DNA from: a virus
Lineage: Duplodnaviria; Heunggongvirae; Uroviricota; Caudoviricetes
Direction: 5' to 3' (one strand)
Virus record (IMG/VR): IMGVR_UViG_3300048854_000273
Location: 43,413 to 107,412 of that record
DNA: 64,000 nucleotides
Position 1 is the first letter of the stretch, and every line of letters begins with the position of its first letter. Below are positions 662-55,092 of the stretch, in pieces. The notes under the pieces were generated by a model. It made no database searches, was not told the origin of the DNA, and saw nothing but the letters and a program-made list of their open reading frames with translations. A program made the translations under genes and the position numbers.

Positions 662-690
662 AAAAAAAAAGGGCGCGGAGGTTGGCGCCC
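662..690 (-). terminator. rho-independent-type hairpin GGGCGC..GCGCCC followed by U9 on minus strand
   Basis: stem 671-676/685-690, A9 at 662-670 on plus strand (U-run on minus transcript); lies between motif 752-765 and GTG start at 635. Confidence 0.5.
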
Positions 691-751
691 ATTCGGAGAC
701 AGAAAAACGAATCAGGGCTCCAATGTAGCCGCGGCCGCGGCATTTGTCAAC

Positions 752-765
752 AGTCAGTTTTGACT
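752..765 (+). promoter_or_regulatory. motif AGTCAGTTTTGACT
   Basis: overlaps the stop codon of 754..1146; followed 62 bp downstream (minus sense) by hairpin 662-690. Confidence 0.6.
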
Positions 766-1146
766 GTCCTCTCGCACAGCAATAAGCAATGCCGTCGCGC
801 GGGCAAGGTTTTCGTCAGATTGCGCAGACGTCTCCCTGGGTGTGCCATCGAGTTCGAAGCGACACACCCATCCCCCGCCCGGTTCGGGCATCACAGAGTG
901 CGGGATTTCGCGCTTAGCGAGCGCTTCTAGCGTGAGAGTCTCGCGTTCGCTGAACCGGGGTGCTGTAACCCAGTTGGTTTCGTCGGGATGGATGCCATTT
1001 TCCCAGCACTTGATGAGACCATCCTGGATTTCGACGAGGTAGCCGAGCGCAACCGCGATGGCTGCATCGAGCCTCAGTCTGTCTCTATCCACGGGGTCAG
1101 CCCAAGTTGGGTCCGCCTCGCATTCCCGGTATTCTTTATCTTTCAT
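754..1146 (-). CDS. hypothetical protein (130 aa)
   Basis: ORF with coding-like composition; last gene of minus-strand operon. Confidence 0.45.
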   Translation of the reverse strand: MKDKEYRECEADPTWADPVDRDRLRLDAAIAVALGYLVEIQDGLIKCWENGIHPDETNWVTAPRFSERETLTLEALAKREIPHSVMPEPGGGWVCRFELDGTPRETSAQSDENLARATALLIAVREDSQN

Positions 1147-1216
1147 TCTTTGTTTCTTTATTACTTATTACTTAATCTATACGGGAACGACTTGGGAGCC
1201 CAAGTGCGGACCCAAG

Positions 1217-1543
1217 TCAGGAACCCTCGAAAATCTCGTCGAGGAGTGAGTCTTCTTCTGAAGCAATGAATGCCGGACCCGGAGATGTCACGGGCGAGAC
1301 GACATAGCCGCGGCCTTCCTTCGTGATCGAGATCAGCACCCGCTTGCGGTCCCGGCGCTTCTCGGCCCCAGTCTTCTCAATGAGCCCATGCTTGATGAGA
1401 GCGCGGATCGAAAACTGGATAGACGCCTTCGTGGTCTCGTAGTTGATTCGCTCGATGACCTGGTCGAGATCGCACGCGGAGCCATCCGGGTTAGCCGCGG
1501 TAATCACGCGCAGCAGCTCGATCTGTTTGGTGGTCAGGTGCAT
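1217..1543 (-). CDS. MarR-type winged-helix transcriptional regulator
   Basis: IQFSIRALIKHGLIEKTGAEKRRDRKRVLISITKEGRGY resembles MarR wHTH recognition helix and wing. Confidence 0.55.
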   Translation of the reverse strand: MHLTTKQIELLRVITAANPDGSACDLDQVIERINYETTKASIQFSIRALIKHGLIEKTGAEKRRDRKRVLISITKEGRGYVVSPVTSPGPAFIASEEDSLLDEIFEGS

Positions 1544-2465
1544 TAAACGGTCCCCGCGAGCTTTGAGAGGTCGAGCGGCGCGTCCACCGGCTGGTTGTCA
1601 TACGCGAGCAGCGGAACGCGAGCGGGCAGCTCCCGCGGTGCTCCGAGATCGACGTCATAGTCCGGGTTGAGGTAGACGCCGTAGAGCGGGCTGGCGAAGA
1701 CCAGTTGCTGAAGTTGCTTGAGCAGCCAGCCCACTTCCATACCCTCAATGCGCTCCTGGGCGTCAAAGCGCTTGTTGCCCGACTTCTCGCGGCTCGAGTT
1801 GCGGAAATAAAAGGCCCGCAGCTCAGCCACACACTTCCCGCGGATGTGCGCGGGCATGGCGTTGATTTCTTCCATCACGCCGACATAGTCGGACGGCACC
1901 GATTCGAACCAGCGCCGGAACAGTTCGAGGCCCGATTTGTATTTGGCACTGGGCCGCGGCCGCACAAACCGCACACCCGCCTTGGCCGCGAATGGGTTGA
2001 ACTTCGACATGGACGACTGGAACTCCACGATGCTCGAGCCCGACAGGCGCATCATGAGGTTCTGCATCCGGTAAGCGATGCCGGCCCCGCGATACATGGT
2101 GTCCAGCACCAGGCGGCTGTTCGTGCAGGCGTTGTCGTTCAGCCAGTTCATCCGATACTTGTTGATGAGCTTGGTGTCCATCCCGTTCTGGTTGGGGCGC
2201 AGATGCTTGAACACTTCGTTGCGGCCCGAGGACAGCGCGGAGGACACCGTCATGACGCCCACTCCGATGGTCTGGTCGCGCAGCACGCACCGATAGAAAT
2301 TCGGCCCGAACGGCAGGTTCTCGGCTTTGTAGTGCAGCTCATGCAGCAGATCCCAGTCCGCCTTGGTGCCGCGTTCGACGTAAATCTCGGGCAGCAGTGA
2401 CAGGCTCACGCGGCCGACGTCGTGCCGCTCGATCAGGACGTCGGGGTTGTCAACGACGATCGCCA
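1543..2465 (-). CDS. hypothetical protein (~307 aa; start taken at MAIVVDNPDV)
   Basis: long ORF; upstream in-frame extension is Arg-rich and overlaps the neighbouring membrane-protein gene. Confidence 0.45.
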
Positions 2466-2734
2466 TTGCGTTTGCTTTCCATAAACCGTTGATAGAACCA
2501 GATGCTGGTTGCGATGCCTGAGCAGCCGCCGGCAGCGCTCGCGAGAAACGCATAGAGCGATCCTGACGCTGCCGCGTGGGCAAAGGTGAACTGACCCACG
2601 CTGATCCCGAAGGACGTCACCACGGACGCGAAATAGCGCCCCTGATTGACGTTCTTCGACTGCACACCGAGAAGAAACACCGACCCGAATGATGCGGCGA
2701 AAAGAATGAGCAGCGTGAGCCAGGTCATTCGCAT
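2450..2734 (-). CDS. small membrane protein (2 predicted TM segments)
   Basis: MRMTWLTLLILFAASFGSVFLLG... hydrophobic; ORF-track version 2450..3040 carries a spurious Arg-rich N-terminal extension. Confidence 0.45.
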   Translation of the reverse strand: MRMTWLTLLILFAASFGSVFLLGVQSKNVNQGRYFASVVTSFGISVGQFTFAHAAASGSLYAFLASAAGGCSGIATSIWFYQRFMESKRNGDRR

Positions 2735-3063
2735 GCCCGCGCGGCGGCTGAGAGCTCGGCCATCGACACGGACGACGCCGCGGTGCTCGCCAGCGTCGTA
2801 GTGTTTATGCAGGTGGGGCCGCCGATTACGCCCGTGAAACCGCCGGGTGTGAGGCCGATACCGACACCTCGCAGGTAGCCGTCGGGGCTGACCATTAGCG
2901 AGTCCTGCACCGTCTTCGGTCGATCGGCGGCCGGCTGCTTCTGTGCCGGCGCTGCGCCCACCTGACTCAGCTTGTCCCGAAGCTGTTCGCGCACGTCCAT
3001 GTTGATATCGGCGCCGCCGTCGAGGAACCCTTCGAGCCACCAGATGAATTGTTCGGGCGTCAT
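2725..3063 (-). CDS. hypothetical protein (112 aa)
   Basis: MTPEQFIWWLEGFLDGGADINMDVREQLRDKL...; ATGA start/stop coupling with the upstream small ORF. Confidence 0.45.
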   Translation of the reverse strand: MTPEQFIWWLEGFLDGGADINMDVREQLRDKLSQVGAAPAQKQPAADRPKTVQDSLMVSPDGYLRGVGIGLTPGGFTGVIGGPTCINTTTLASTAASSVSMAELSAAARACE

Positions 3064-3236
3064 ACGGCGTTCACCAGGATCGTGGTTGCGTTGGCGATGT
3101 CCAGATCGGACACACCACCGGTCGGCGGCAGGTCGTCATCGTCCCGGCGGTCCTTGCTGTCGACCATCTTGACGATCAGCGCCCAGAAAGCGAGCAGGCC
3201 GATGATGATCAGAGGCAGGGTCAGGCAAAGGTCCAT
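3060..3236 (-). CDS. small membrane protein (58 aa), not in ORF track (<60 aa)
   Basis: MDLCLTLPLIIIGLLAFWALIVKMVDSKDRRDDDDLPPTGG...; stop TGA overlaps next ATG; start 2 nt after thioredoxin stop. Confidence 0.4.
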   Translation of the reverse strand: MDLCLTLPLIIIGLLAFWALIVKMVDSKDRRDDDDLPPTGGVSDLDIANATTILVNAV

Positions 3237-3237
3237 G

Positions 3238-3588
3238 TCAGAACTCCAGTTTGAGTGCGGACTCGCCGAGTCCGAGTTCGCCGAAATACTCTTTCAGCGC
3301 GGCTTCGGTGCGGTCGCCCGAGAAGCGGCCCTTGGGCAGCCCGCCGTCGAGGGTGATGACTGTCGGAACCGCGCGCACGCCAAAGAGACCGGCCAGTTCC
3401 GGCTGATCACCGGCATCGACCACGGCGAGCGTGAAGCCCCACTCGTCGGCGAGTTTCGCGAGCTTGGGCTTGAGCTGCCTGCACGGGCCGCACCACGAGG
3501 CCGTGAAAACCACGACCACGGGCTCCTGCTGCGACTTTTCAGTGACGAAGTGGTCGAACGTTTCCTTCGTCGGGTTAATGACCGGCAT
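3238..3588 (-). CDS. trx: thioredoxin
   Basis: WCGPC active-site motif (ASWCGPCRQLKP) and thioredoxin fold spacing; start taken at MPVINPTKE. Confidence 0.85.
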   Translation of the reverse strand: MPVINPTKETFDHFVTEKSQQEPVVVVFTASWCGPCRQLKPKLAKLADEWGFTLAVVDAGDQPELAGLFGVRAVPTVITLDGGLPKGRFSGDRTEAALKEYFGELGLGESALKLEF

Positions 3589-4237
3589 CTTTGTATCCTT
3601 CGGGGGTGTAGGCGACCTCGATCTTTTCGCGGTAGCGCTTCTCGATGTAGACGGAAGGCGCCAAGTCCGCGCGCAGGTCGAGGTGAGTGGTAGCGACAAG
3701 CAGCGTCGCGCCGGCGGTGCGGGCGACCTTCTGCATGTTGAAAGCAATGACGCGGGCAGTGTCCCGGTCGACCACGGCGAGAAACTCGTCGGCAACCCAG
3801 ACCTTGGCGTTCGCTTCGATCAGCTTGGCGAGACGGAACCGGTAGCGCTGCCCGTCCGACAGCTCGGCGGGCTTGCGAATGAACAGGTAGGCGTCGTTCA
3901 GGCCCGCGATCGACAGGTATTTCAGCGCGTCGTTGGTGTCGGTGCCGATCTGGTTGATGAGCGGGCAGTCCTGGAACTGGATCTCATCGATATCGCACAC
4001 GGCGTCGCCGGCGGCCTTCATCTGCGCCTTCAGCTCTCGCAGGACTGTGGACTTTCCCGAGCCGGACTGGCCGGTCACGTAGACCACATCTCCCTGCTCG
4101 ATATCGATTGCCTGGTTGTCGAAAACGACGAATTCCTTGTCGTCCAGACCCAGCCCGAACGCTTCGGCGATCTCCAGCACGCGGTCGGTGCGCTCAACCG
4201 TCGCCGTGAAGCGCTTGTTCACCATGTATTGAGTCAT
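3575..4237 (-). CDS. ABC-transporter-type ATP-binding domain protein (stand-alone NBD)
   Basis: Walker A GQSGSGKST, ABC signature LSDGQRYRFRLA, Walker B VWVADEF, H-loop TTHLD; start taken at MTQYMVNKRF. Confidence 0.65.
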   Translation of the reverse strand: MTQYMVNKRFTATVERTDRVLEIAEAFGLGLDDKEFVVFDNQAIDIEQGDVVYVTGQSGSGKSTVLRELKAQMKAAGDAVCDIDEIQFQDCPLINQIGTDTNDALKYLSIAGLNDAYLFIRKPAELSDGQRYRFRLAKLIEANAKVWVADEFLAVVDRDTARVIAFNMQKVARTAGATLLVATTHLDLRADLAPSVYIEKRYREKIEVAYTPEGYKDAGH

Positions 4238-4557: not shown

Positions 4558-4583
4558 ACCCCTGTAGGGGTCGTCCGCGCGCT

Positions 4584-4721: not shown

Positions 4722-4760
4722 CGCGGTCCTCGATTACGGCTTTGGGGTGGGTAAAGGTCT

Positions 4761-6740: not shown

Positions 6741-8297
6741 ATGACACGCGTCACGATCGCTTACAACGCCACCACCGCAAAGCTCCATGAGCCGGATCGT
6801 GCGATCAAGCTCGAAGTCCAGCGGCTGATCTCCTACAAGGTGTCGGGGGCGGACAAGACCGACGCATTCAAGCGCGGCGGCTGGGATGGCCGCAGCTCGT
6901 TCTTCGACTTCAGGAAGGGCACCTTCCCCGCCGGCTTCGTGCATCTTGTGACGGCGGGTCTGCGGCGCGCGGGGCATGAGGTGCTGCATGCGGCACGACC
7001 CGCACCCGAGCCGCTCGGGCCGTCCAAGCCGAAGATCGACAGCTTTCCCGACGACCCCCGCTACGACTATCAGCCCGAAGTGGTCGAGCGGCTCGTCAAG
7101 CATCGCCAGATCATCGCGCAGATCGCAACCGGCGGCGGCAAGTCCCGGATCGCGCGGCTTGCCTTCGCCCGTATCCGCCGCCCCACCCTGTTTCTGACGA
7201 CGCGCTCGATCCTCATGTATCAGATGAAGGACGCATTCGAAGAGATGGGCGTGAAGTGCTCGGTGCTTGGCGACGGTCAGTTCGGAACGGTCTCAGTCGA
7301 TGCCGACGGTGTCGAACGTCATTCTGTGAAGATGATGAGCGTTGGCATGGTTCAGACGCTCGTCTCGCGTCTTGCAGAACCGTGCCCGGATGATGACGTC
7401 GAAAAGCAGAACGAGCAGACACGCATCAGGAACAAGACGATCGCGTTGCTGGAAAAGTTCGAGTTCGTGATCGGCGAGGAAGCTCACGAGGCTGGCGGCA
7501 ACAGCTATTACGAGATCCTGCGCCACTGCAAGAACGCGCATTACCGCCTGGCCCTGACAGCGACGCCTTTCATGAAGGACGACGAGGAGTCGAACATGCG
7601 CCTGATGGCCGCGTTCGGCCCGATCGGTATCAAGATCAGCGAGAAGATGCTGATCGACCGCGGCATCCTGGCCACCCCCTGCTTCAAATACATCGAATTG
7701 CAGAACAAGCCGGCCAAGCTGTTCCGTGGCACCACCTGGCAAGCCGCCTATCGTCTGGGCATCGTGGACAACGCCGAGCGCAACGCTCATACCGTCTACG
7801 AGGCTCGCCGGGCGGCTGCGTTGAAGCAGCCGGTGATGATCCTGGTGCAGCAGACGCGCCACGGTGAGCTTTTACGGGAACAACTCGCCGCAAAGGGCGT
7901 GCGCGTTGAGTTTCTGCAGGGCGAAAACAAGCCGAAAGAGCGTAAAACCGCACTTGGCAAGCTCGCGAATGGCGAAACCGAGGTTCTGATCGGCACCACC
8001 ATCCTGGACGTCGGCGTGGACGTGCCGGCCGTTGGTTTGGTGATTCTTGCCGGCGGTGGAAAAGCGGAAGTTGCGCTTCGCCAGCGCATCGGACGCGGTG
8101 CCCGAGCGAAAAAGAAAGGCCCAAACCGGTTTCTGGTTGTGGACTTCAATGATCCGTGGAACTCGCACACTAAGGAGCATGCCCTGCAGCGCCGCGCGAT
8201 CGTTGATTCGACGCCGGGTTTCGCGGAGAACGTGTTGCCGGCTGGCGCCGACTTCGACTTCGTCAAACTCGGGTTTGCGACTCGCAAGGCTGCCTGA
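6741..8297 (+). CDS. superfamily-2 DNA helicase (DEAH-type, UvsW-like)
   Basis: Walker A IATGGGKSRIA, DEAH-like GEEAHE, motif III LTATPF, motif V LIGTTILDVGVDVP, motif VI QRIGRGAR. Confidence 0.85.
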   Translation: MTRVTIAYNATTAKLHEPDRAIKLEVQRLISYKVSGADKTDAFKRGGWDGRSSFFDFRKGTFPAGFVHLVTAGLRRAGHEVLHAARPAPEPLGPSKPKIDSFPDDPRYDYQPEVVERLVKHRQIIAQIATGGGKSRIARLAFARIRRPTLFLTTRSILMYQMKDAFEEMGVKCSVLGDGQFGTVSVDADGVERHSVKMMSVGMVQTLVSRLAEPCPDDDVEKQNEQTRIRNKTIALLEKFEFVIGEEAHEAGGNSYYEILRHCKNAHYRLALTATPFMKDDEESNMRLMAAFGPIGIKISEKMLIDRGILATPCFKYIELQNKPAKLFRGTTWQAAYRLGIVDNAERNAHTVYEARRAAALKQPVMILVQQTRHGELLREQLAAKGVRVEFLQGENKPKERKTALGKLANGETEVLIGTTILDVGVDVPAVGLVILAGGGKAEVALRQRIGRGARAKKKGPNRFLVVDFNDPWNSHTKEHALQRRAIVDSTPGFAENVLPAGADFDFVKLGFATRKAA

Positions 8298-8313
8298 AAC
8301 GTGCTACTTTGAT

Positions 8314-8327
8314 AGTCATTACTGACT
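8314..8327 (+). promoter_or_regulatory. motif variant AGTCATTACTGACT
   Basis: 12 nt upstream of ATG 8340. Confidence 0.45.
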
Positions 8328-8339
8328 ATGGAGCATTCA

Positions 8340-8530
8340 TGAAGCACGCCCTGATCCTGAACGTGATGATCGTCCTGGCCGTGGTGCTGGCGATCGTCGT
8401 TTCGCGCAGCCCGGTGCCGCTATTCGCGCTGTTCATGCTGCGGGAGTTTCCGTATGCGCTGATGGTGCCGCAGCCGCAGGTAGCGACCGATGACGGCGAG
8501 CCCCGGATCGGATTCACCGCCGCCGTCTAG
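8340..8530 (+). CDS. small membrane protein
   Basis: MKHALILNVMIVLAVVLAIVVSRSP... with GGAG RBS; motif variant 12 nt upstream. Confidence 0.4.
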
Positions 8531-8593
8531 TTGACCTGATCTGACAAATGCTTTGCCGTAAAATGGGTGCCCCTCACGGGCACCCCACTTTCG

Positions 8594-8633
8594 TTAGAAG
8601 AAAAAACGTCGTGACTATAATTTGCATGCAAAT
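8594..8633 (+). promoter_or_regulatory. sigma70-like promoter TTAGAA-16-TATAAT overlapped by perfect palindrome ATTTGCATGCAAAT (8620-8633) and GCAAAT repeats
   Basis: -35 at 8594-8599, -10 at 8616-8621, GGAG RBS at 8654, ATG at 8666. Confidence 0.5.
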
Positions 8634-8665
8634 GCAAATGCACGTTTTTCAATGGAGCATTATAG

Positions 8666-8935
8666 ATGGATCAGGACAAACAAACGCGCTACACGGTCGT
8701 CGTCGGTAAGCTCGCGCAGTCGCGACTCGCATCGATCGCCAAGCAGTTCAAGATCAGCCAGGGCGCCGTCATGGAGGTGATGATCGAGAACGTGGATGTC
8801 CAGGCGCTCGAGGAGCAGTTCAAGGCCCGGCGCGAGCTAAAGGTCCAGAGTCGCGGCAGCAAAAGCGAACTGATGAACACTCTCAAGGCTCTCACGCCCG
8901 AGCAGCGGGCCTATCTGGAAAGCCTGAAGGGGTAA
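8666..8935 (+). CDS. hypothetical protein (89 aa)
   Basis: clean ORF behind the sigma70-like promoter and RBS. Confidence 0.5.
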   Translation: MDQDKQTRYTVVVGKLAQSRLASIAKQFKISQGAVMEVMIENVDVQALEEQFKARRELKVQSRGSKSELMNTLKALTPEQRAYLESLKG

Positions 8936-8938
8936 AGC

Positions 8939-9319
8939 GTGCGTGCGCTGGTCTGTGGAGGTCGCGACTTTGTCGACCAGACATTTTGTAACTGGGCGCT
9001 CGACGCAATTCACTCACGGCGACCCATCACGCTTCTGATGGAGGGCGGAGCCCGCGGCGGCGATCGCTGTGCCCGGAACTGGGCAATCTCCCGCGGCGTC
9101 ACATATCGCACCTTCGACGCGGACTGGACAAGATACCGGCATCGCGCCGGCCCCATCCGAAACCAGCAGATGCTCGATGAAGGCTGCCCCGATCTCACGA
9201 TCGCCTTGCCAGGCGGCAAGGGCACGACCGACATGGTGCTGAAGTCACGGGCGGCTGGCGTAACGGTCAAGACACTCTGGCACCTCTACGAGTCCTATAA
9301 GACCGCAATGATTGCCTGA
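8939..9319 (+). CDS. DUF2493 / SLOG-family (YspA-like) protein
   Basis: MRALVCGGRDF...GGARGGDRCARNWA...GPIRNQQML...ALPGGKGTTDMV matches the DUF2493 pattern (from memory). Confidence 0.55.
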   Translation: MRALVCGGRDFVDQTFCNWALDAIHSRRPITLLMEGGARGGDRCARNWAISRGVTYRTFDADWTRYRHRAGPIRNQQMLDEGCPDLTIALPGGKGTTDMVLKSRAAGVTVKTLWHLYESYKTAMIA

Positions 9320-9354
9320 CCGACGTATCCTAGAGCGACACACAGGAGGTCGCC

Positions 9355-9549
9355 ATGATGAACGACAAGGAGTGGCAGGAAAAGGTCGTCGAGCGCGCGG
9401 AGACGTTCTGCCCGGAGTGTGGCTCGACGAACCTGACGATGGGGGCCTGTGCGATCGGCGCATGGACGGTCCACCAGGAATACGTCTGCAACGCCTGCCA
9501 GTTCGAATTCAAGGCGCTGTTCGGTCTGATCGGCGCCTACCCCACCTGA
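9355..9549 (+). CDS. small zinc-ribbon protein
   Basis: CPECGS...CNACQFEF. Confidence 0.45.
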   Translation: MMNDKEWQEKVVERAETFCPECGSTNLTMGACAIGAWTVHQEYVCNACQFEFKALFGLIGAYPT

Positions 9550-9550
9550 C

Positions 9551-9995
9551 TCAGAACTGCTCGTTCAGAAACGGCGCGAAGTGGTTCTGCACGTCCGTGA
9601 TGCGATTAAAGCACGGCCAGTATGCCTGGCCCTGCCCGCCTGACGATGACGCATACATGCCCCGGCACACGCCTTCGAGGGTAATCGTCGCGCCTGCCCC
9701 TGCATCGAGGTAGGTCGCGCGGAACGACGCCTCGCCGGTATGTGCGGGCAGATAGGTCTCGACCGCCGTGTCATCGGAGCGGCGCACCCGCATATCCGAG
9801 TTCTGTTCGACAAAGACCTTTGTGAGGCGCCACGTCTTCGCACACGCCGCTGCATCGGTGCAGGTGATGGTTGCCCGCTTCTGGATCACGGCAAGCGCCT
9901 GCTCGGCGTCGGTGTAATCCTTCTCTGTTTTGGCTTGCTCCGCCGGCGACGCGCAGCCTATGAGTGCGAGCGCAGCGAGCCCGATGACGATGGTC
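9551..9995 (-). CDS. lipoprotein (148 aa)
   Basis: MKATIVIGLAALALIGCASP signal peptide with LIGC lipobox; start taken at internal Met. Confidence 0.55.
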
Positions 9996-10153
9996 GCTTT
10001 CATGGTGTCGTTCTCCCCCGTTTTTGACGGTCGGATTATAGACAGCCTCAGCGCCGAAATGGGCAAGGTGTAAGGATTGCCCAACACCTACCCAACTATG
10101 GGGCGCGAGCGATTCGGGGTGGCTGTCTATATTCATTCGGTTACGACTGAATA

Positions 10154-10658
10154 TGAGGGCAGCATGATCGAAGAATGGCGGGATGTGGTGGGCGCAGCGG
10201 GTCTTTACGAGGTGTCGAACCTTGGGCGAGTGCGGAAGGACGGCGGTCGCGTCATGGCGACTCAGCGGGTCTCCAAAGACGACGCTCATCGACGGGCGCG
10301 CCTGACCATTGCCGATAAGCGCGTGAAGCGACTGGTTCACGTTCTTGTTCTGGAAGCGTTTGTCGGGCCGCGGCCGCTCGGAATGGAAAGTTGTCATGAC
10401 GACGACGACCCCGAAAACAACGCTCTCTCGAACCTGCGATGGGACACCTCGCTCGGGAACAAGCAGGACGCTCAGCGGAACGGTCGCACGGCTCGGGGTG
10501 AGCGCATTGCACAATCAACCCTCACAGAGGCTCAGGTGCGAAAGATCAAGTCGGCGGCCGGCAAGAGCGAGCGTGAACTGGCTCGTGAATTCGGCGTCAC
10601 GCGCGGGGCAATTCAGGGCGTGAAGCGCGGCACCACGTGGGCGTGGCTGGAAGTATAA
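10154..10658 (+). CDS. HNH homing endonuclease (NUMOD4 + HNH + C-terminal HTH)
   Basis: YEVSNLGRVR (NUMOD4), CHDDDDPENNALSNLRWDT (HNH), ...LAREFGVTRGAIQ (HTH); GAGGG RBS. Confidence 0.75.
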
Positions 10659-10986
10659 GGAGAGGGGCTCCTGGGCGGCCTGGATCTGTAAGGATGCGTC
10701 CTGGGGACCGGAAGTTCCACAAGGGAGGGCCATCAGCTCGACCGGGATTTTCTAGGACTTCGACTCTCCCGGTGGACGCGAATCGTCCGCGTCCAGTCAG
10801 CGCACGACAGCGCGCGCTATCGTGTTGTGTGTCGTGCGGTTCGCAATGCGTTTGCAGTCACGCGAGACCGCTTGTAACGCGCTATCGTGCGCATATGAAT
10901 ACAGACACAGCAGACCGCATGCGATCAGCAACAGAGACACGATCAGCAACAAATCGAACATACAACCCTCTCGAATGAGAACTGAG

Positions 10987-11002
10987 CGTTTCACGTGAAA
11001 CA
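10987..11002. promoter_or_regulatory. canonical parS centromere-like site CGTTTCACGTGAAACA
   Basis: 15/16 match to the chromosomal parS consensus TGTTTCACGTGAAACA; perfect 14-bp palindrome GTTTCACGTGAAAC. Confidence 0.6.
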
Positions 11003-11015
11003 CTCAGTTTTGACT
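11002..11015 (+). promoter_or_regulatory. motif ACTCAGTTTTGACT abutting parS
   Basis: read directly. Confidence 0.55.
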
Positions 11016-11770: not shown

Positions 11771-11800
11771 TTTTCGACTCTCAAAGTGTGTTGTGTTTCA

Positions 11801-11814
11801 CGTGTCAGACAGTC
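11801..11814 (+). promoter_or_regulatory. motif AGTCAGTTTTTACT
   Basis: 30 nt upstream of 11024..11770 start; preceded by half-parS. Confidence 0.55.
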
Positions 11815-11982
11815 AGTTTTTACTGTCTGTCTCGCTACAACGTTGCAGCGAGTAGAGACAGTATGACGACATATGAAACACATGTAAATATCTTTCGCAC
11901 GTATTTTCTAGAGTCGTTACTGGAGTTGTTTTTGCGCGGAACCGCTTGCAGGGCCGCTCGGGCGGGTGTAGTGGCGAGGGCT

Positions 11983-17922: not shown

Positions 17923-17991
17923 CTCATGGCTGGCGTCTACCGTTTCGCCACCGACAGACGCCAGCCATGAGGGCACTGCCGAAGCAGTGCC
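17923..17991 (-). promoter_or_regulatory. tandem hairpins: 16-bp stem CTCATGGCTGGCGTCT/AGACGCCAGCCATGAG then GGCACTG/CAGTGCC
   Basis: between genes 18001..18519 and 17599..17904; on the minus transcript the large hairpin is followed by UUUU. Confidence 0.45.
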
Positions 17992-30977: not shown

Positions 30978-31366
30978 GCCGCCACCGCTTTCGCTTTCGC
31001 GATTTCTGCCTGCAACTTCAGGACGTAATCCTTCACCTGACCGCCGTCGTGCTCCTCTTTCTGCCCCAAGTTCAGCAGATAGGCGCCTTCCGGCAGCTCG
31101 CGTCGATTGACGAGATCCTGGAATGCGATGCTCGGTCGGATCAGGCCGGTGATCGCGGACAACTCGTCTTGCAGCTCCTTCGCCTCCAGCTCCGACAGAT
31201 CACCCTGCACGAAGCGACCCACTTGCTTGAGCGATTCCTGTCCACGACCCGCGACCGCGAGATACAGGCCTTCCTTCTTGTGGACCTTGCGCAGCAACGC
31301 CTCGACGTCATCGATCTGCACCTGTAAAGCCTTGACCACCTTCGTTTCGATCAGCAACGTTGCCAT
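30974..31366 (-). CDS. hypothetical protein (start at MATLLIETK with AAGGAG RBS)
   Basis: ORF; 30-bp perfect inverted repeat containing the motif lies 43 nt upstream. Confidence 0.5.
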   Translation of the reverse strand: MATLLIETKVVKALQVQIDDVEALLRKVHKKEGLYLAVAGRGQESLKQVGRFVQGDLSELEAKELQDELSAITGLIRPSIAFQDLVNRRELPEGAYLLNLGQKEEHDGGQVKDYVLKLQAEIAKAKAVAA

Positions 31367-31400
31367 CGATTTCTCCTTCAACGGGTTGAACACTTAAACT

Positions 31401-31430
31401 AGATACATAGTCAGTTTTGACTATGTATCT
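31401..31430 (+). promoter_or_regulatory. motif AGTCAGTTTTGACT (31409-31422) embedded in a 13-bp-arm perfect inverted repeat AGATACATAGTCA/TGACTATGTATCT
   Basis: read directly; 43 nt upstream of ATG 31366. Confidence 0.65.
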
Positions 31431-31462
31431 ATGTTAAAAGCTCAACACTGGAATGTGTTCGG

Positions 31463-35871: not shown

Positions 35872-35943
35872 GCCGAAAACCTCTTAAATGCTCGCGCAAC
35901 GTTGCGCTCAGAAAGAATCTTATAGATTGTCGTCAGGGAAAAC

Positions 35944-35957
35944 AATCAGTTTTGACT
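35944..35957 (+). promoter_or_regulatory. motif AATCAGTTTTGACT
   Basis: 72 nt upstream of ATG 35871. Confidence 0.5.
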
Positions 35958-35980
35958 GTTCCCTGACGATTTACCACAAC

Positions 35981-39584: not shown

Positions 39585-39657
39585 GTTTCCTCTAACGTAA
39601 GGATCGAAACTGCCCCGGTAGCGACCGGGGCTTAGTTACTGCTGACAAATAAATTAT

Positions 39658-39671
39658 AGTCAGTTTTTACT
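39658..39671 (+). promoter_or_regulatory. motif AGTCAGTTTTTACT
   Basis: between the nrdB stop and the lipoprotein gene; followed by leader hairpin 39613-39630. Confidence 0.55.
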
Positions 39672-39699: not shown

Positions 39700-40695
39700 T
39701 CAGTCTTCCCAGTCGTCAAGCGTGCCGACGGCGTAATCGCCCACTTTCGCTTCAAAAAAGTTGGACTCTTCGCCTTCGCTGAACTTCTTGAACCACGGCA
39801 CTGGCGACTTCACGCCAGGGAACAGTTCCGGCAACCCGATTTCGTGCGCGTGCTCGTTGGCCGTCGCCTGCAGAAAGCCCGTCACAATTGGCGCGGTGAG
39901 CCCCAGCATGCCCTTGCTGACGCTGTAGGCGCCCCACTTCGCTTCCAGGTCAACGGCGTCGCGCAGCAGGAACTCCGCGTCCCTCCAGAACTGTGCGTCG
40001 TAGAGCTCCGGTCGCTCCCGCCGGTTCGTCTGGTGCATCAGCTTGAACAGCTTCAGGTGGTTCCGCTCGTCCCGGTGAATCAGCTTCACACTGTCAGCGC
40101 TGCCAGTCATTTTTCCGTTACGTGCGAGTGCATAGAACACGAGGAACGCGCTGTAGAAGTAGATCCCCTCCAGAGCGACGTTTGCGACAAGTGAGCGCGC
40201 AAACTGCGCGGGCGTCTGTTCGCCGGCGAGGACGCGCGACTGCTTGAGGATATGTTCGTTCTTGGCCGCCAGCATGCCGTCGCGTTCAAAGCGCATGTAG
40301 ACCGCCATCGGATCAGCCGACACCGTCTCCACCATTTCGCTGTAGGCATCCACGTGCAGCGCCTCCTCGTAGCGCTGGCGCATGATGCACATTTCCACTT
40401 CTGGCGACGTGATGCACGACTCGATGTTCGCGAGGCTGTGGAGCTGGATGCCGTCGAGGTTGGAAGCGAACGACAGGGCGCTGTCGTAGGCGAAACGCTC
40501 ACCCTCGGTCAGGCGGGTGCGGTAGCAGGGGCCGTCCTCGGTCAGATCGGTCTCGTGGAGATCCCAATTGGCCGCCTTCATGGTCTTCCACATGTCGCGC
40601 GCCCACTTGTGCTTGGCGGGCGAGATCGCCATTAGATCCGATCTGGGTCCGAAAGCGAGCCGGCGGTCGTTAATAATCTGGGCGTGGTTACTCAT
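39700..40695 (-). CDS. nrdB: ribonucleotide reductase class I small subunit (R2/NrdB-like)
   Basis: ferritin-like di-iron motifs EEALHVDAYSE, VALEGIYFYSAF, IHRDERNH. Confidence 0.85.
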   Translation of the reverse strand: MSNHAQIINDRRLAFGPRSDLMAISPAKHKWARDMWKTMKAANWDLHETDLTEDGPCYRTRLTEGERFAYDSALSFASNLDGIQLHSLANIESCITSPEVEMCIMRQRYEEALHVDAYSEMVETVSADPMAVYMRFERDGMLAAKNEHILKQSRVLAGEQTPAQFARSLVANVALEGIYFYSAFLVFYALARNGKMTGSADSVKLIHRDERNHLKLFKLMHQTNRRERPELYDAQFWRDAEFLLRDAVDLEAKWGAYSVSKGMLGLTAPIVTGFLQATANEHAHEIGLPELFPGVKSPVPWFKKFSEGEESNFFEAKVGDYAVGTLDDWED

Positions 40696-40982
40696 GCTGC
40701 AGCTCCTGGCTGTGGGGTAATGGCGATCATGGCGTCACGTGCGCGAGCCCCGTGATCAAAGCCCTGATCAGCATAAAAGACGAGGGCGTCACCCATACGC
40801 TGCAACACGCTCATGGGCAGCGTCACGCGCGGATCGCGGATCAGGGGCTCGCCTTTCGGGATAATCTGCTCGCCGCGGGCCGGCGGCTGGGGCGCAGCAG
40901 GGGCGCCGCTATCGAGCGCTTGTGGGTGGCGATCTTCGGCCCTCATCGCGCGCGGCGGGAAGCTCAATACTTTGGCTGACAC
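40692..40982 (-). CDS. hypothetical protein (96 aa), apparent GTG start
   Basis: ORF between nrdA and nrdB; preceded by terminator-like hairpin 40995-41013 and motif 41024-41037. Confidence 0.35.
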   Translation of the reverse strand: MSAKVLSFPPRAMRAEDRHPQALDSGAPAAPQPPARGEQIIPKGEPLIRDPRVTLPMSVLQRMGDALVFYADQGFDHGARARDAMIAITPQPGAAA

Positions 40983-40994
40983 TGTATTCTCCGG

Positions 40995-41013
40995 AAAAAG
41001 CCCCGCACGGGGC
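40995..41013 (-). terminator. hairpin GCCCCG-ca-CGGGGC followed by U5 on the minus strand (downstream of nrdA)
   Basis: read directly; possible attenuator between nrdA and downstream genes. Confidence 0.45.
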
Positions 41014-41023
41014 GGGGGTTTAT

Positions 41024-41037
41024 ACTCAGTTTTGACT
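41024..41037 (+). promoter_or_regulatory. motif ACTCAGTTTTGACT
   Basis: 7 nt after the nrdA stop; followed by hairpin+U5 40995-41013. Confidence 0.55.
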
Positions 41038-43380: not shown

Positions 43381-43914
43381 TTACCAGGCGTCGCCGGCAG
43401 CAGTCACGGGCTGGTCGCGATTGATCGGTGATGTGCTGACGGGCGCAGGGGACGGCTGCGTCATGTATTGGCTCTGGAAGTCTTCCGGCGACAGATAGCG
43501 CATCGCGTCGGCATCGTGGTTGTGCCAGTCAGTCCAGTCATGGGGCCGGCCCGTCGAGGCGGGATTAGGCACGGCGATCATCTTGACCATGCCGTCCAGA
43601 CCCTTGACCTCTTTCCAGCGCAGCGTGGGCCGCTCCTCATGCGGGCAGGCTTTGGGCGTGGCACACGACGCGTCGAGCGTCGTTTCCATGGTCGCCATGG
43701 AGACATGACGGTCGAGCTTGATCTTGCCGCATTCAACGCAGTCGGCGCAGCCTGCACTGAGCAATGCATCGGCGACTCTCTGCATCTCGCGGCGCTCGCG
43801 CGCAAGGGCGGTTAATCCCAAGGTCTCAACTTGGCTGATCGGCATGCGAAAGCGCGTGTTTTTGAGCAGGGTCTTTTTGCGTTCAGCAATAGAATGATCG
43901 GCGAAGGCGCCCAT
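43381..43914 (-). CDS. hypothetical Cys-rich protein (177 aa)
   Basis: ORF; motif 39 nt upstream. Confidence 0.45.
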   Translation of the reverse strand: MGAFADHSIAERKKTLLKNTRFRMPISQVETLGLTALARERREMQRVADALLSAGCADCVECGKIKLDRHVSMATMETTLDASCATPKACPHEERPTLRWKEVKGLDGMVKMIAVPNPASTGRPHDWTDWHNHDADAMRYLSPEDFQSQYMTQPSPAPVSTSPINRDQPVTAAGDAW

Positions 43915-43953
43915 GAAACTCTCCAGGAAACGAACTGACTACACGCTAAGTAT

Positions 43954-43967
43954 AGTCAGTTTTTACT
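43954..43967 (+). promoter_or_regulatory. motif AGTCAGTTTTTACT
   Basis: 39 nt upstream of ATG 43914. Confidence 0.55.
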
Positions 43968-50809: not shown

Positions 50810-50866
50810 CTGAACCCCCTTCTGTTGACGTGTAAGTCAAGTATAGAAAGGGGCCAGAAAGGGCTA

Positions 50867-51943: not shown

Positions 51944-51960
51944 GATGTTTTCCTTGAGAA

Positions 51961-51974
51961 CGTCAGTTTTGACT
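51961..51974 (+). promoter_or_regulatory. motif CGTCAGTTTTGACT
   Basis: 17 nt upstream of the recA ATG. Confidence 0.55.
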
Positions 51975-52027
51975 GTTGCTATGTCTATTGAAACATAACG
52001 ACGAAGGGGTTAAAACGGTGGCTGCTG

Positions 52028-52984
52028 CTATGCCCGAAACGGAGCAGTCCAAGCACGCATGTCGCGCAGGATGCTGAAGAACGAGAGCTCCTCGCAGACC
52101 TCAACGAACTTGTCCTCGTCGAACTTGCCGACGATGACTCGCATGTCCTCGCGCTGCGGCTTCTCAACTTTCAGGAGTTGCATCAGCTTCAGGTTACGGG
52201 CGAAAATCTTGCGGCCTTCAGGCGACGCGAGATTCTTGTGATACTTATATTTCGGGACGAAGTCGCCGCTGTCGACGCGCTTCCAGAAGTTGCGAACCGA
52301 TCCGAACTCGGCAATGAACTCCGGCGCGCGCCCGTCACCGATCCCACCCACGCCGCTGATCACGTCGGACGTATCGCCCACGAGACACTTGCCTTCGAGG
52401 AACGCATACGGTGTCGGGTAGCCGGTCTTGTCCATCAGGTTGGCGAGCGTGAAGCGCTTGTCGTCGTCCCGGTGGTCCTGCCACTCGACGTTGCGGCGAA
52501 CCAGTTGCGCCCAGTCCTCGTCGCCCGTCAGCAGTTCGATCTCATTCTCGGGGTTCTTGGACAGCTCGCCAACGAAGTAGCCCGCCATGTCGTCGGCTTC
52601 GTGCTTCATTGCCGTCACCTGACGAACGCCCAAGTGCTGCAGGGCGCGTTCGATGTAGGGGCGCTGCTTCTTGTAGGACTCGCGCTCGATCACCTTCTTG
52701 GCATCGTTCTCGCGGTTGGACTTATAGAGCGGGTGCAACGCGAAGCGCCATTCCGCACGGCCATCCCACAGCGTCATCGGTGTGTAGTTGGGCCGGCGAC
52801 GAATGGCGTTACGCACCGAGCGGATCGTGCCGAAGATAGCTTGGGTTTCGAGTTCGCCAGAGCGTAGCTTGGTGCCGCGGTGTGCCGCATGCCCCACGCT
52901 ATTGCCGTCGATCAAAAGGGTCTTGCTCACTTCTCTCTCCACGTGGACGAAAAAAGGGCTGGCACCCGAGAGCGCCAGCCCCAA
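52028..52984 (-). CDS. 5'-3' exonuclease / flap endonuclease (Pol I 5'-nuclease, T4 RNase H-like)
   Basis: N-terminal LLIDGNSVGHAAHRG like the Pol I 5'-nuclease domain; acidic metal-binding clusters. Confidence 0.75.
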   Translation of the reverse strand: MGLALSGASPFFVHVEREVSKTLLIDGNSVGHAAHRGTKLRSGELETQAIFGTIRSVRNAIRRRPNYTPMTLWDGRAEWRFALHPLYKSNRENDAKKVIERESYKKQRPYIERALQHLGVRQVTAMKHEADDMAGYFVGELSKNPENEIELLTGDEDWAQLVRRNVEWQDHRDDDKRFTLANLMDKTGYPTPYAFLEGKCLVGDTSDVISGVGGIGDGRAPEFIAEFGSVRNFWKRVDSGDFVPKYKYHKNLASPEGRKIFARNLKLMQLLKVEKPQREDMRVIVGKFDEDKFVEVCEELSFFSILRDMRAWTAPFRA

Positions 52985-53000
52985 GCGGGCCGGTTACTGC

Positions 53001-53840
53001 TTACGTGCCGGTCGCTTCGAGGTCGCCCAACAGATCGTCGAGTTCCTCGTTCAGTGCGACGCTTGCGCCTGCCGGCGTTGCGTCCACCTTCGCGCTGCGT
53101 AGTTCCAGCTCACGCAGTTCGTCATCGCCGTCCAGCTCCGGTGCTGCGAGCGACTTCGGCTTGTCTGCGGACGACGTTGCAGCCGGCAGCAGTCCTGCGA
53201 CCGAGCTGATCGCGGAGATCGCGCGACGGGTTTGCTCCTCGTTTTCCTGGGTGACATACTCATCCAGGTTGTGGAGCTTGCCAGCCGTTCCCGCCGGCAG
53301 CGTGTAGGTCTTCGGCGAAACCTGAACGGTGTATTTCGTGTTCAAGCCCTTGCCGTCACGCTGGATCACCACGATCTGCGGCGCCACCGGATCGAACAGC
53401 TTTTCGCCCCACTCCTCGATCGTGTCCACAAGTTGCGTGAACGCCGACTTGCCGAGTTCGTAGATGACCGGGTCCGCGCCGGTCGGGCCGTCGATATCGA
53501 TGACGTTCAGGACGAAGCCCTGCTTCGACTTCGCACCCTTCAGCAGCTCCACCGTTTCGTCGTCGCTCGTCACGCGCATCGCCTTGTTCAGCGATTCACA
53601 TGCCGCGCACGGTTTGCCGAACGTGGCTTCAGCACACGGAATCACCGCCTGGATTTCGCCGGCGGAATTCTTGATGAAGTGCTGACCCCACTCGTGGAAG
53701 AACTGCTGCTCCTCGCCCTTGCGCCAACCGCCGAGAACAACGATCTTGTTCGTGCCGGGACGCGGCTTGACCGTCTTTTCCTTCGGTTTGAGCGCAGCCT
53801 TCTTGGCTTTCATCAGGCTCATCAGTTTGCTTGTATCCAT
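53001..53840 (-). CDS. T4 gp32-like single-stranded DNA-binding protein (alternative GTG start at 53918)
   Basis: basic N-terminus; zinc ligands H..C-x8-C-x2-C (HEWGQHFIKNSAGEIQAVIPCAEATFGKPCAAC); acidic C-tail LDGDDELRELEL...; AAGGA RBS before the ATG at 53840. Confidence 0.6.
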   Translation of the reverse strand: MDTSKLMSLMKAKKAALKPKEKTVKPRPGTNKIVVLGGWRKGEEQQFFHEWGQHFIKNSAGEIQAVIPCAEATFGKPCAACESLNKAMRVTSDDETVELLKGAKSKQGFVLNVIDIDGPTGADPVIYELGKSAFTQLVDTIEEWGEKLFDPVAPQIVVIQRDGKGLNTKYTVQVSPKTYTLPAGTAGKLHNLDEYVTQENEEQTRRAISAISSVAGLLPAATSSADKPKSLAAPELDGDDELRELELRSAKVDATPAGASVALNEELDDLLGDLEATGT

Positions 53841-53947
53841 CTTTTTTCCTTTTTCCAGTTTTCTTTTGATCGTAGAGAGATGCCTTTTAGACAACGCGGT
53901 GTGGTGCTGATGCTTCACCGCGTCATCGTTTCAGCAAGAAAGATTAT

Positions 53948-53961
53948 AGTCAGTTTTGACT
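53948..53961 (+). promoter_or_regulatory. motif AGTCAGTTTTGACT
   Basis: 29 nt upstream of the GTG at 53918 (107 nt upstream of ATG 53840) of the SSB gene. Confidence 0.6.
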
Positions 53962-53979
53962 ATCCTTCGACAGGCAAAA

Positions 53980-55014
53980 TTACCCGTTTGATACTCGTGC
54001 AGCGTTCACAGCCCGATTTGCCAGATTTTCGCGTTCGGCCTGGGCCGCCATGATGCGTGCCTGTCCCTTGCTCTCGTCGCGGCGATCGGCACCCAACTGG
54101 ATGATCATGTCGCGGCGATCCGACAGCGCGAACACGCAGGACTTCGCCACCGCGGCGATCGATTCAGCCTCGATCACAAGCTGCTTGCCTGCAATCCAGC
54201 GCGGGTCGATCTTGACCATGTTCTCGACAGCCTTCTCGGTCACCTTCTCGCCCGACGTCACGAGCGCCTTGCGATGCTCGTCGTAGATTTTTGCCTCGCG
54301 CACTTCAAAGCGGGTCTTGATGCTTGAGGCCTGCGCTTCCGCACGTGCGGCACGTGCACCGTAAAAAGCACGCAAACTGGCTTGCTGCATCATGCAATCG
54401 TCCAGATTGTTTTCCGTGACCTGCATGTCTGCTTTAAAGCTGTCCACGTCGATGTAGTAGTCGAGCGCAGCCGCTGCTTTCTTCGCCTTCGCGATGGCTG
54501 CGACTTCCTCTTCCTCTATCGATGACTTCGTCGGGGCCGGTGCGGGTGCGGGTGCTACAGGCTCAAGTTCTTCTGCGGGCGGGTGCGGCATCGTCAAGGT
54601 CTCGGCCGGTTCGGTCGATTCTTCGTCCCACGGTGGCGTGGCGGGCGGTGCGACTGTGCCCGATTCGATCTCCGCTTCGAGCGCCGCGAGTTCGTCGTCC
54701 ACGTTCGATTCGTCAGCGACCGGTGCTGCCAGCGGAGTCGGTGCGGGAGCCGCCAGCACGACCGTCGTGCCCTCTTCTTCCAGAACGATCAGATCCTCAT
54801 CCGACAGCGTCAGATCGGCTTCAACCGGGGTAGATGCCGGTGCCTCATCAAGTTCGTCCAGACCTTCCAGCTCGTCACTGGTCGGCTCGGGTGTGGCAAC
54901 GACGGGGGTCTTCTTTGGCGCGGGGGCTGCGGCCGGCACCCCGGTCGCTTCTTCCAGCTCCAGCATCAACGAATCGAGTTCATCATCCGGCACCGGGATT
55001 TCGGGGGTTGTCAT
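53980..55014 (-). CDS. hypothetical protein, acidic Pro/Ala-rich N-terminal half plus conserved C-terminal domain (possible recombination mediator)
   Basis: ORF; GAGGAG RBS; sits between the SSB and dnaE genes. Confidence 0.45.
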   Translation of the reverse strand: MTTPEIPVPDDELDSLMLELEEATGVPAAAPAPKKTPVVATPEPTSDELEGLDELDEAPASTPVEADLTLSDEDLIVLEEEGTTVVLAAPAPTPLAAPVADESNVDDELAALEAEIESGTVAPPATPPWDEESTEPAETLTMPHPPAEELEPVAPAPAPAPTKSSIEEEEVAAIAKAKKAAAALDYYIDVDSFKADMQVTENNLDDCMMQQASLRAFYGARAARAEAQASSIKTRFEVREAKIYDEHRKALVTSGEKVTEKAVENMVKIDPRWIAGKQLVIEAESIAAVAKSCVFALSDRRDMIIQLGADRRDESKGQARIMAAQAERENLANRAVNAARVSNG

Positions 55015-55078
55015 GTCTGCTCCTCAGTAAGAACTGTTCTTCACGCGTCGAGTATAGCGACGCGCGACAGGGTTTTGC

Positions 55079-55092
55079 ACTCAGTTTTGACT
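55079..55092 (+). promoter_or_regulatory. motif ACTCAGTTTTGACT
   Basis: 6 nt after the dnaE stop; followed by hairpin 55044-55064 then GAGGAG RBS of 53980..55014. Confidence 0.55.

Follow-up and report, generated by a model that had tools for sequence, protein, structure and literature searches.

The question raised by this stretch of DNA is whether a short recurrent motif and the GC-rich hairpins that follow it form one regulatory unit. The stretch, called the window below, comprises 64,000 nucleotides (nt) of a Caudoviricetes virus (IMG/VR record IMGVR_UViG_3300048854_000273, positions 43,413 to 107,412). A preliminary description had reported four loci on the minus strand at which a 14-bp motif is followed, in transcript orientation, by a stable hairpin placed just before the next start codon, and had suggested attenuation, antitermination or RNA-stability structures in leaders. 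All four arrangements are present: upstream of a terS-like gene (locus 1), after nrdA (locus 2), downstream of nrdB (locus 3) and downstream of dnaE (locus 4); coordinates are collected in Table 1. Rather than an RNA signal tied to these hairpins, the motif is a palindrome at the DNA level that stands in register with promoter hexamers. The hairpins are mostly terminators or stem-loops of neighbouring genes, and only locus 1 looks like a real terminator-based switch. The complete explanation, in which palindromic operators sit in host-type promoters and the hairpins are separate elements of the same short intergenic spaces, is one that we hold to be probable, with some reserve.

The motif is a 5-4-5 palindrome of 14 bp, AGTCA-N4-TGACT, which is frequently extended to 7-4-7. 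When up to two mismatches were allowed, 0.59 matches were expected in the window and 33 were counted; the minus (gene) strand carries 29 of these. The frequent variants, A at position 4 (C4>A) and G at position 13 (C13>G), are uncompensated: AGTA...TGACT, found in eight copies, and ...TGAGT, found in six, each break a pair. Since the common variants are uncompensated, the conserved thing is not an RNA stem. Judged by its occurrence in related sequences, the motif is common to a large family of temperate, DnaE-encoding phages of roughly 105-120 kb, and copies are also present in the late region of relatives. The half-sites are constant across this family and the four central bases vary between phages; in distant relatives the central bases vary even among the copies of one genome. 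In some lineages the half-sites themselves are altered at orthologous positions, for example to AGTCACACGTTACT or AGTCGTAGCTGAC, a change between lineages that we liken to that of immunity specificities.

We examined the register between motif and promoter hexamers at 209 non-identical sites across the family. The hexamer TAnnnT begins on the last base of the motif or right after it (offset -1 or 0) at nine sites in the window and at 34 in relatives. At 48 sites in relatives, a TTGACA-like hexamer begins at the last base of the motif (offset -1) and TAnnnT follows at offset 22. A TAnnnT on the upstream side, at a distance of 3 or 7 nt from the motif, was found at 18 and 14 sites, respectively. 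The motif thus occurs in three positions: filling the 17-18 bp spacer between -35 and -10 (class A), abutting or overlapping the upstream edge of the -35 (class B), or over the start site (class C). TTG was found at a spacing of 16-18 bp in 28 of 51 class A sites, as compared with 0-11 at control spacings. The clearest geometry was observed upstream of the portal gene, where many lineages have TTGACA, 3-4 nt, the 14-bp palindrome and TAnnnT, with a spacer of 17-18 bp. The portal ATG follows the -10 by 7-8 nt without a Shine-Dalgarno sequence (L034:11911-11965, with orthologous sites in L037, L040, L041, L055, L060 and L070). This suggests that the portal mRNA may be leaderless, a geometry which in turn indicates that the hexamers are real -10 elements. 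The motif therefore fits, as read from these registers, an operator-like palindrome within host sigma-70-type promoters.

The distribution of copies is that expected of an operator network, with 29 co-oriented copies in 64 kb, located in promoters and short intergenic spaces. The phage is temperate (see below), and a divergent gene for a Cro/CI-type helix-turn-helix (HTH) protein, 63863-64000 (+), adjoins a cluster of three copies on both strands. The copy at 63627-63640 (-) is followed by TATAAT and preceded, 18 nt upstream, by TTGCTT, which makes it part of the first leftward promoter. The same three-site layout recurs in relative L101 (L101:4330-4980), whose HTH orthologue is full length (135 amino acids, aa). 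One downstream promoter is flanked by two motif copies, an arrangement that is found again in the closest relative. The putative binder is most likely a phage HTH repressor; by binding the motif copies it would keep dozens of promoters silent in the prophage. The hairpins would then be separate elements that share the short intergenic spaces with promoters and operators, the whole making up composite promoter/operator/stem-loop cassettes. We also observed, ahead of the HTH gene, a TATAAT in the loop of a small hairpin, GCGTC-tataat-cGACGC (63794-63810). The palindrome GCGTC-N-GACGC, shared around the -10 at 55045 and at 63794, was not enriched in our count (3 against 2.1 expected).

Locus 1 is the place where the idea of antitermination or attenuation is well founded, because the operon's own promoter must read through a terminator, as in lambda PR'-tR'. 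The motif is followed by GT and then by TTGACA, which opens a near-consensus sigma-70 promoter; the spacer of this promoter holds a palindrome of its own, GCCGCGGCCGCGGC (741-728). The terminator stem lies ~30 nt downstream of the predicted start site. Behind the terS-like gene, the closest relative (L034) carries terL and then the portal, scaffold and major head genes, indicating that locus 1 is the head of the packaging and structural operon. The promoter-leader-terminator module upstream of terS is kept in 37 diverse relatives. In the 37-sequence alignment, no variation was seen in the T, the A and the last T of the -10, in the GGGCG/CGCCC core of the stem or in the U-run. Compensatory changes were found in the stem, from C-G to U-A in 8 of the 37 sequences and from G-C to A-U in two, the remaining pairs being invariant. 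A UCUCC box just upstream of the stem and a CUCC in its loop are kept in most lineages. In many lineages there is also an apparent likeness between the leader's 5' end and the terminator's 3' arm. The parts of the module, shared by at least 37 lineages, are an operator and a near-consensus promoter, together with a leader that is ~50-58 nt long and bears two CUCC boxes, and a terminator whose U-run is U7-10.

A terminator lying after its own start site, as predicted, and before the first gene was found at locus 1 only. Antitermination or attenuation at the terS leader is plausible on these grounds. Transcripts from this late promoter would end by default as an RNA of ~50-58 nt unless termination is overridden, and the leader would serve as a late-gene switch by either mechanism. 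More specifically, the terS module may be a previously undescribed late-gene switch, acting by processive antitermination or through RNA, without a recognisable Q, and embedded in a genome-wide network of spacer-placed palindromic operators; we put this forward as a tentative possibility. Folding revealed no conserved alternative antiterminator structure at locus 1, the consensus fold keeping the terminator only. A long-range helix flanking the terminator, which appeared in the single-sequence fold, was lost in the consensus fold of nine relatives and was discarded. A search of Rfam gave nothing at gathering score; a match to isrK at 666-741 (-), with 13.5 bits against a cut-off of 50 (E = 0.8), is probably just the locus 1 terminator.

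The TGA of the locus 1 motif is also the stop codon of an open reading frame (ORF) of 130 aa, 754-1146, located directly upstream of the promoter. The C-terminus of its product, DSQN-stop, is encoded by the motif (GAC AGT CAA AAC TGA, 754-765, minus strand) and is kept in close relatives (alignment A3). This ORF had no match in Pfam or PHROGs. The best match of its AlphaFold2 model (mean predicted local distance difference test score, pLDDT, 83) was the phage protein 1r7l; the model has a weak likeness to double-stranded RNA-binding folds and none to Q proteins.

The hairpin of locus 2 is also terminator-like. We counted 5-6 GC pairs and U5 at this locus, and 6 GC pairs and U9 at locus 1, and both hairpins were listed by a terminator scan, in agreement with what had been reported for two of the four. 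The locus 2 stem, for which an alternative pairing GCCCC-gtgc-GGGGC exists at 41013-41000, begins 2 nt after the -10-like hexamer, so that the predicted start (~41011-41013, 6-8 nt past the hexamer) falls inside the 5' arm. Downstream, a Shine-Dalgarno sequence GGAG (40992-40989) and GTG 40982 precede a 96-aa ORF (40692-40982) that is conserved in relatives. Motif-bearing relatives share this layout. Three relatives (L006-L008), in which NrdB is 86-91% identical, have no motif at the site and still possess a terminator hairpin behind nrdA, ahead of the following gene. This assigns the hairpin to nrdA rather than to the motif. It would terminate nrdA transcripts, and RNA re-initiated at the locus would start within the stem and keep at most a short 5'-terminal hairpin. 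A similar design was found after the major head gene in about 12 lineages, where the palindrome is followed by a good -10 (TAGAAT or TATAAT), a terminator 0-2 nt later, a Shine-Dalgarno sequence and ATG. In this case also, transcripts from upstream would terminate and those of the embedded promoter would start within the stem.

At locus 3 the predicted start precedes the hairpin, which occupies nt 16-35 of the predicted transcript ahead of ATG 39584. The sequence GACTATAAT is kept in L010-L012, and in L006-L008 TATAAT or TATACT comes after a variant motif. Seven relatives preserve the stem, with a loop that varies freely. A second, small hairpin sequesters the Shine-Dalgarno sequence before ATG 39584 (UCCUU at 39603-39599 pairs with GAGGA within 39593-39587) and is kept in L010-L012. 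Locus 3 is a genuine structure of the 5' untranslated region (UTR), and could be either a weak attenuator of nrdB read-through or an element of stability or translation.

At locus 4, the hexamer right after the motif is poor (TGCAAA), and TATACT, 22 nt after the motif, is in the class B register. Since the predicted start (~55042-55044) coincides with the end of the 3' arm, the hairpin is outside the promoter's own RNA. The gene downstream has a Shine-Dalgarno sequence GAGGAG (55025-55020) and ATG 55014. One relative (L013) has an identical stem with TACAAT in the loop and another (L014) an unrelated stem with TATGAT in the loop; in more distant relatives, inverted repeats of 9 bp enclose the whole motif and -10 at the site downstream of dnaE. 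The recurrence of a -10 in the loop across three lineages with different stems indicates that the structure is selected. The stem would fold only in dnaE read-through RNA, there acting as an attenuator or a 3' stabiliser, or possibly in DNA. Besides this hairpin, a smaller one at 55020-55035 (-) pairs GUUCUU with AGGAGC, and hence the Shine-Dalgarno sequence with an upstream pyrimidine stretch.

Table 1. Positions of the motif copies, promoter elements, hairpins and genes discussed in the text (window coordinates)
Feature	Coordinates	Strand	Remarks
Locus 1 motif AGTCAAAACTGACT, operator-like	752..765	-	2 nt upstream of the -35 hexamer
Locus 1 promoter, TTGACA (750-745), N17, TACATT (727-722)	722..750	-	predicted start ~715-719
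Locus 1 terminator, GGGCGC-caacctcc-GCGCCC (690-671) and U9 (670-662)	662..690	-	in the leader of the terS-like gene
terS-like gene, DNA-binding	3..635	-	GTG 635; Shine-Dalgarno AGAAGGA 648-642; runs off the window
Locus 2 motif AGTCAAAACTGAGT (41037-41024) and -10-like TATAAA (41024-41019)	41019..41037	-	1-nt overlap
Locus 2 terminator-like hairpin, CCCCGC-cccgt-GCGGGG (41017-41001) and U5 (40999-40995)	40995..41017	-	
Locus 3 motif AGTAAAAACTGACT (39671-39658) and -10 TATAAT (39658-39653)	39653..39671	-	1-nt overlap; predicted start ~39646
Locus 3 stem-loop, GCCCCGG-tcgcta-CCGGGGC	39612..39631	-	5' UTR; weak U tail
Locus 4 motif AGTCAAAACTGAGT	55079..55092	-	abuts weak -35-like GTGCAA/TGCAAA
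Locus 4 hairpin, CGCGTCG-CTATACT-CGACGCG	55044..55064	-	loop contains -10 TATACT (55056-55051)
Switch-region motif copies	63775-63788 (-), 63729-63742 (+), 63627-63640 (-)	both	copies span 63627..63788, in the divergent control region 63600-63870
Cro/CI-type HTH gene, divergent	63863..64000	+	cut by the window end; candidate motif-binding repressor
Sigma-70-family protein, phage-encoded, 215 aa	59228..59875	-	region 2 match only
Stem-loop in the -35/-10 spacer	copies 63275, 752		
Stem-loop bracketing the -10	copy 55079		
Stem-loop just after the -10	copy 41024		also the major-head site in relatives
Stem-loop enclosing the motif	copies 31409, 35944, 11811		

The preliminary description amounts to a model in which, at all four loci, motif and hairpin form one leader-RNA unit that terminates or attenuates transcription until a phage factor relieves it. 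Two hairpins with U-runs just before a start codon, the good fit of locus 1 and the conservation of a motif-then-terminator order after the major head gene of relatives speak for such a unit. The distance from motif to hairpin nevertheless differs everywhere (+61, +6, +26 and +11 nt at loci 1 to 4), and the start predicted for locus 2 is within the hairpin, that for locus 4 beyond it. The hairpin of locus 2 is kept where the motif is absent. The tails of loci 3 and 4, AGUUUCGA and UGAAGAAC, lack a U-run, and neither hairpin was listed as an intrinsic terminator by the scan. The minimum-free-energy folds of all four motif-to-start segments contain the hairpins; when compared with shuffled sequences, only loci 3 and 4 were clearly more stable (z = -2.7 and -2.2, against -1.2 for locus 1 and -0.5 for locus 2). 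Between lineages, only the length and identity of the stems vary at loci 2-4. Nor were hairpins enriched next to the motif: of 29 copies, 6 have a strong one (-10 kcal/mol or better) that starts between -10 and +50, as compared with 3.3 +/- 1.7 at random positions (P ~0.10), and in 6 of 13 intergenic gaps of the window with a motif against 8 of 20 without. Five copies have their hairpin upstream, in the conventional order of terminator then promoter (for example 63334-63303 before the copy at 63288-63275). Within the window, the pairing of motif and hairpin is not beyond chance, and the one-unit model appears quite unlikely. What stands of the reported arrangement is that it is real and recurrent, two late-region motif-then-hairpin sites being conserved over many lineages; it is not a fixed unit, as the four juxtapositions differ. 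Antitermination or attenuation is plausible at locus 1, where promoter, leader, terminator, conservation in 37 relatives and compensatory changes concur, and is not matched by loci 2, 3 and 4, which are unlike a leader attenuator. A stability structure in a leader is possible at locus 3, in a 5' UTR and with no real U-run, and does not apply to the locus 4 hairpin, which is outside its promoter's transcript. The same window statistics would favour the opposite extreme, that promoters or operators and terminators, each common between genes, are coincidental neighbours in the four cases with no functional link. Exact juxtapositions are nonetheless conserved across lineages (the -10 abutting the major-head terminator, the -10 in the loop past dnaE, the terS module), and family-wide the hairpin starts peak 0 to +9 nt after the motif, which makes pure coincidence very unlikely. 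Outside the terS leader, the arrangement is a compact packing of promoters and terminators of known kind.

Two other readings concern the motif itself. It might be a phage-specific promoter element, recognised by the sigma-like protein (59228-59875) or by an activator, with the hairpins as 5'-terminal mRNA stabilisers. The window does encode a protein with sigma-70 region 2, syntenic with the sigma factor of phage B1VFA; the motif core is better conserved than the neighbouring hexamers, many window copies are without a good -35, and the copies are co-oriented with genes. In addition, the motif centre of class B lies at about -41.5 in relatives, a classical activator position. That reading has to contend with a motif that is already on the first leftward promoter, beside a repressor-like gene, and with class B sites of near-consensus TTGACA-N17-TAnnnT, at which an activator should be unneeded. 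The three registers inside the RNA polymerase footprint suit a repressor and only one of them suits an activator. Copies lie on both strands in the switch region, one promoter is flanked on both sides, and half-sites change between lineages like immunity specificities. We consider the phage-specific promoter element unlikely. Alternatively, the motif could act in RNA, as a stem-loop or processing site AGUCA-AAAC-UGACU whose cleavage leaves a GC hairpin to protect the 5' end of the next cistron. It folds as 5 bp and a tetraloop, often extended to 7-11 bp, it is located between stop codon and ribosome-binding site, and several copies are too near the start codon for ordinary promoters. This is most improbable in view of the uncompensated pair-breaking variants described above, of the exact -10/-35 register and leaderless portal geometry, which are properties of DNA, and of the opposite orientation of copies in the divergent control region, together with the result of the Rfam search. 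A promoter for a T7-like single-subunit RNA polymerase was also considered, as ACTGACTATA resembles T7 and SP6 promoters; it was dropped in view of the -35/-10 registers, no such polymerase being found in the window or in the last 50 kb of the B1VFA annotation that was examined.

Several observations weigh against the preferred reading of operators in host-type promoters. Most class A copies of the window have a poor -35, TTG being present in only 3 of 9. For about 10 of the 29 copies, no hexamer could be recognised in register. Some of these are only 9-20 nt away from a start codon (48583, 51961 and 6005, for instance); such copies must act differently, as a roadblock, or be relics. The locus 2 hexamer does not end in T, either here or in relatives (TATAAA, TATCTC, TACCTC), and the copy there may serve as an operator only, with no active promoter. 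In 27 of 29 copies the asymmetric spacer AAAC points the same way as transcription, which a symmetric dimer leaves unexplained; we tentatively attribute it to shared descent or to gene conversion and homogenisation of whole cassettes. The phage sigma-like gene could account for recognition of part of the motif sites. No antiterminator for locus 1 was found by searches of Pfam and PHROGs or by fold search. Finally, all start sites were predicted from the hexamers.

The closest known analogue of these cassettes appears to be the PeSLs (promoter-early stem-loops) of T4-type phages, in which a sigma-70-like promoter and a stem-loop make up a repeated intergenic cassette (Arbiol et al. 2010, PMC2839356; Comeau et al. 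2014, PMC4122927). The PeSL stem-loop lies in the -35/-10 spacer, overlaps either box, is found upstream, or stands just past the -10 before the start, and has been interpreted as a terminator or attenuator of transcription from upstream (PMC2839356). Here also, cassettes with sigma-70-like boxes are repeated between the upstream stop codon and the Shine-Dalgarno sequence and ATG, though the -35 is weak in many window copies, and the position of the stem-loop is variable. PeSL subclasses are matched by loci 2 and 4 and by the spacer-palindrome copies 63275 and 752. The phage studied here differs from the T4-type myoviruses of the PeSLs in being temperate and DnaE-encoding, with siphovirus-like genes and an integrase. 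The core of its cassettes is an operator-like palindromic 14-mer, whereas that of PeSLs consists of promoter boxes and an AT-rich upstream region, and its stems have no common sequence. A place in hyperplastic regions and a part in gene shuffling or mini-circles are further characters of the PeSLs in T4-type phages. By analogy, the cassettes would work like PeSLs and are not members of the PeSL set.

For the terS leader the relevant comparison is with lambda PR'-tR', where late control is exerted by Q antitermination, the leader is 194 nt long and the Q-binding element lies between -35 and -10. Locus 1 resembles it in combining a strong promoter, a short leader and an efficient terminator directly before late genes, with a short RNA as the putative default. 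It differs in the length of the leader (~50-58 nt against 194 nt), in the position of the palindrome, upstream of the -35 instead of between -35 and -10, and in that no Q homologue was found at locus 1, the adjacent upstream ORF being of another fold. No pause-inducing -10-like element was identified at locus 1, where control by read-through is putative.

Genome-wide repressor sites are known from the C1 operators of phage P1 and the conserved inverted repeats of Streptomyces phage phiC31. The operators and 'stoperators' of mycobacteriophage L5 and cluster A, a class of 13-17 bp sites that are asymmetric and bound by a monomer (PMC9283540), resemble the present motif in number and layout. Both sets count dozens of sites of this length, genome-wide and co-oriented, in promoters or short intergenic spaces of temperate phages, with a repressor gene beside a cluster of sites. 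The sites studied here differ from them in being palindromic (5-4-5) and, for the most part, precisely aligned with promoter hexamers. There is no relation between the hosts or between the proteins, and in our case both binding and repression are putative. As to the hairpins, a 5'-terminal stem-loop stabilises the mRNA in the ompA leader of E. coli. At locus 2 and at the major-head site of relatives, a GC hairpin would likewise form the very beginning of any RNA started 6-8 nt past the -10, with stabilisation as a putative effect, and in L006-L008 the locus 3 hairpin lies ~5 nt past the predicted start. In the window itself, ~16 nt separate the locus 3 hairpin from the predicted 5' end, a distance at which the classical effect is not to be expected.

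These results provide a predicted regulatory map for a large family of temperate phages seen mostly in metagenomes, in which host-type promoters carry a common palindromic operator and are interleaved with terminators, and in which at least one structural gene is predicted to be leaderless. For annotation, they indicate that a hairpin straight after a promoter-like motif is no attenuator as a matter of course; what decides is where the start site lies with respect to the stem. The conserved terminator of the terS leader offers an experimental handle on late-gene switching in the family, and the set of operators and promoters could yield compact repressible promoters for Burkholderia-type hosts.

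Nearly all genes of the window are leftward, and its GC content is ~60%. It encodes a DnaE-type polymerase, NrdA, NrdB, SbcCD-like proteins, a UvsX-like recombinase, CobT/CobS-like proteins, a ParB-like protein and a UvsW-like helicase. Among annotated phages, the nearest are Rhizobium phages B1VFA and RHEph10, Stenotrophomonas phages and Pseudomonas 'nickie'-like phages, with a polymerase identity of only ~45% at the aa level; megablast detected no close nucleotide relative in the phage collection. Many relatives of 105-113 kb were found in IMG/VR, some with 70-80% nucleotide identity. In the closest relative (L101), the neighbours of the HTH gene encode another, CI-like HTH_3 protein, a protein resembling excisionases and a tyrosine integrase, and a homologous region sits in a 450-kb contig of a Paraburkholderia metagenome-assembled genome, GCA_047605525.1. 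On the strength of these neighbours and of this contig, the phage is, by its gene content, a temperate DnaE-encoding phage of ~110 kb, with Paraburkholderia as its probable host. The window is its leftward early and replication arm. Matches to UvsX, gp46/47-like, Nrd and CobST proteins had first prompted the idea of a T4-like phage with an analogue of the MotA box; it was dropped because the polymerase is of DnaE type and the relatives are the phages named above. The sigma-like gene 59228-59875 is syntenic with the annotated sigma factor of Rhizobium phage B1VFA, two genes upstream of dnaE. Despite the presence of this gene, the late promoters resemble ordinary sigma-70 promoters.

Some further observations concern individual motif copies. 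Extended palindromes with a stem of up to 11 bp and the motif at the apex occur at 31400-31431, 35939-35964 and 11807-11830 (-); each would be an extended operator or a motif-enclosing hairpin. Pairing between the motif's 3' half and an inverted copy of it ~12-16 nt downstream occurs at 43933-43961 and 10981-11010 (-) (AACTGACTA...TAGTCAGTT and AACTGAGT...GCTCAGTT); the -10 region is left in the loop, and the inverted copy agrees with the C or G variant at motif position 13. A palindrome of 10 bp, GCAACGTTGC, has three copies in the window (31354-31363, 35896-35905 and 61103-61112) against 0.26 expected, each intergenic or near a gene start and near a motif copy, with a near-copy around 11840. 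At 10988-11001 and 11795-11804 (minus strand), the sequence CACGTGAAAC follows two neighbouring motif copies at similar distances, the first making the perfect palindrome GTTTCACGTGAAAC; at one mismatch it was not enriched window-wide. The leftward arm is interrupted by a block on the opposite strand (6741-10658, +) that carries the UvsW-like helicase and several small ORFs, and within this block a motif-like copy on the plus strand (8314-8327) lies immediately before a start codon. Lastly, a highly stable intergenic hairpin (-36 kcal/mol, stem of roughly 20 bp, then UUUU) with no motif nearby was found at 17923-17971 (-), with a second hairpin, 17972-17991, directly upstream of it.

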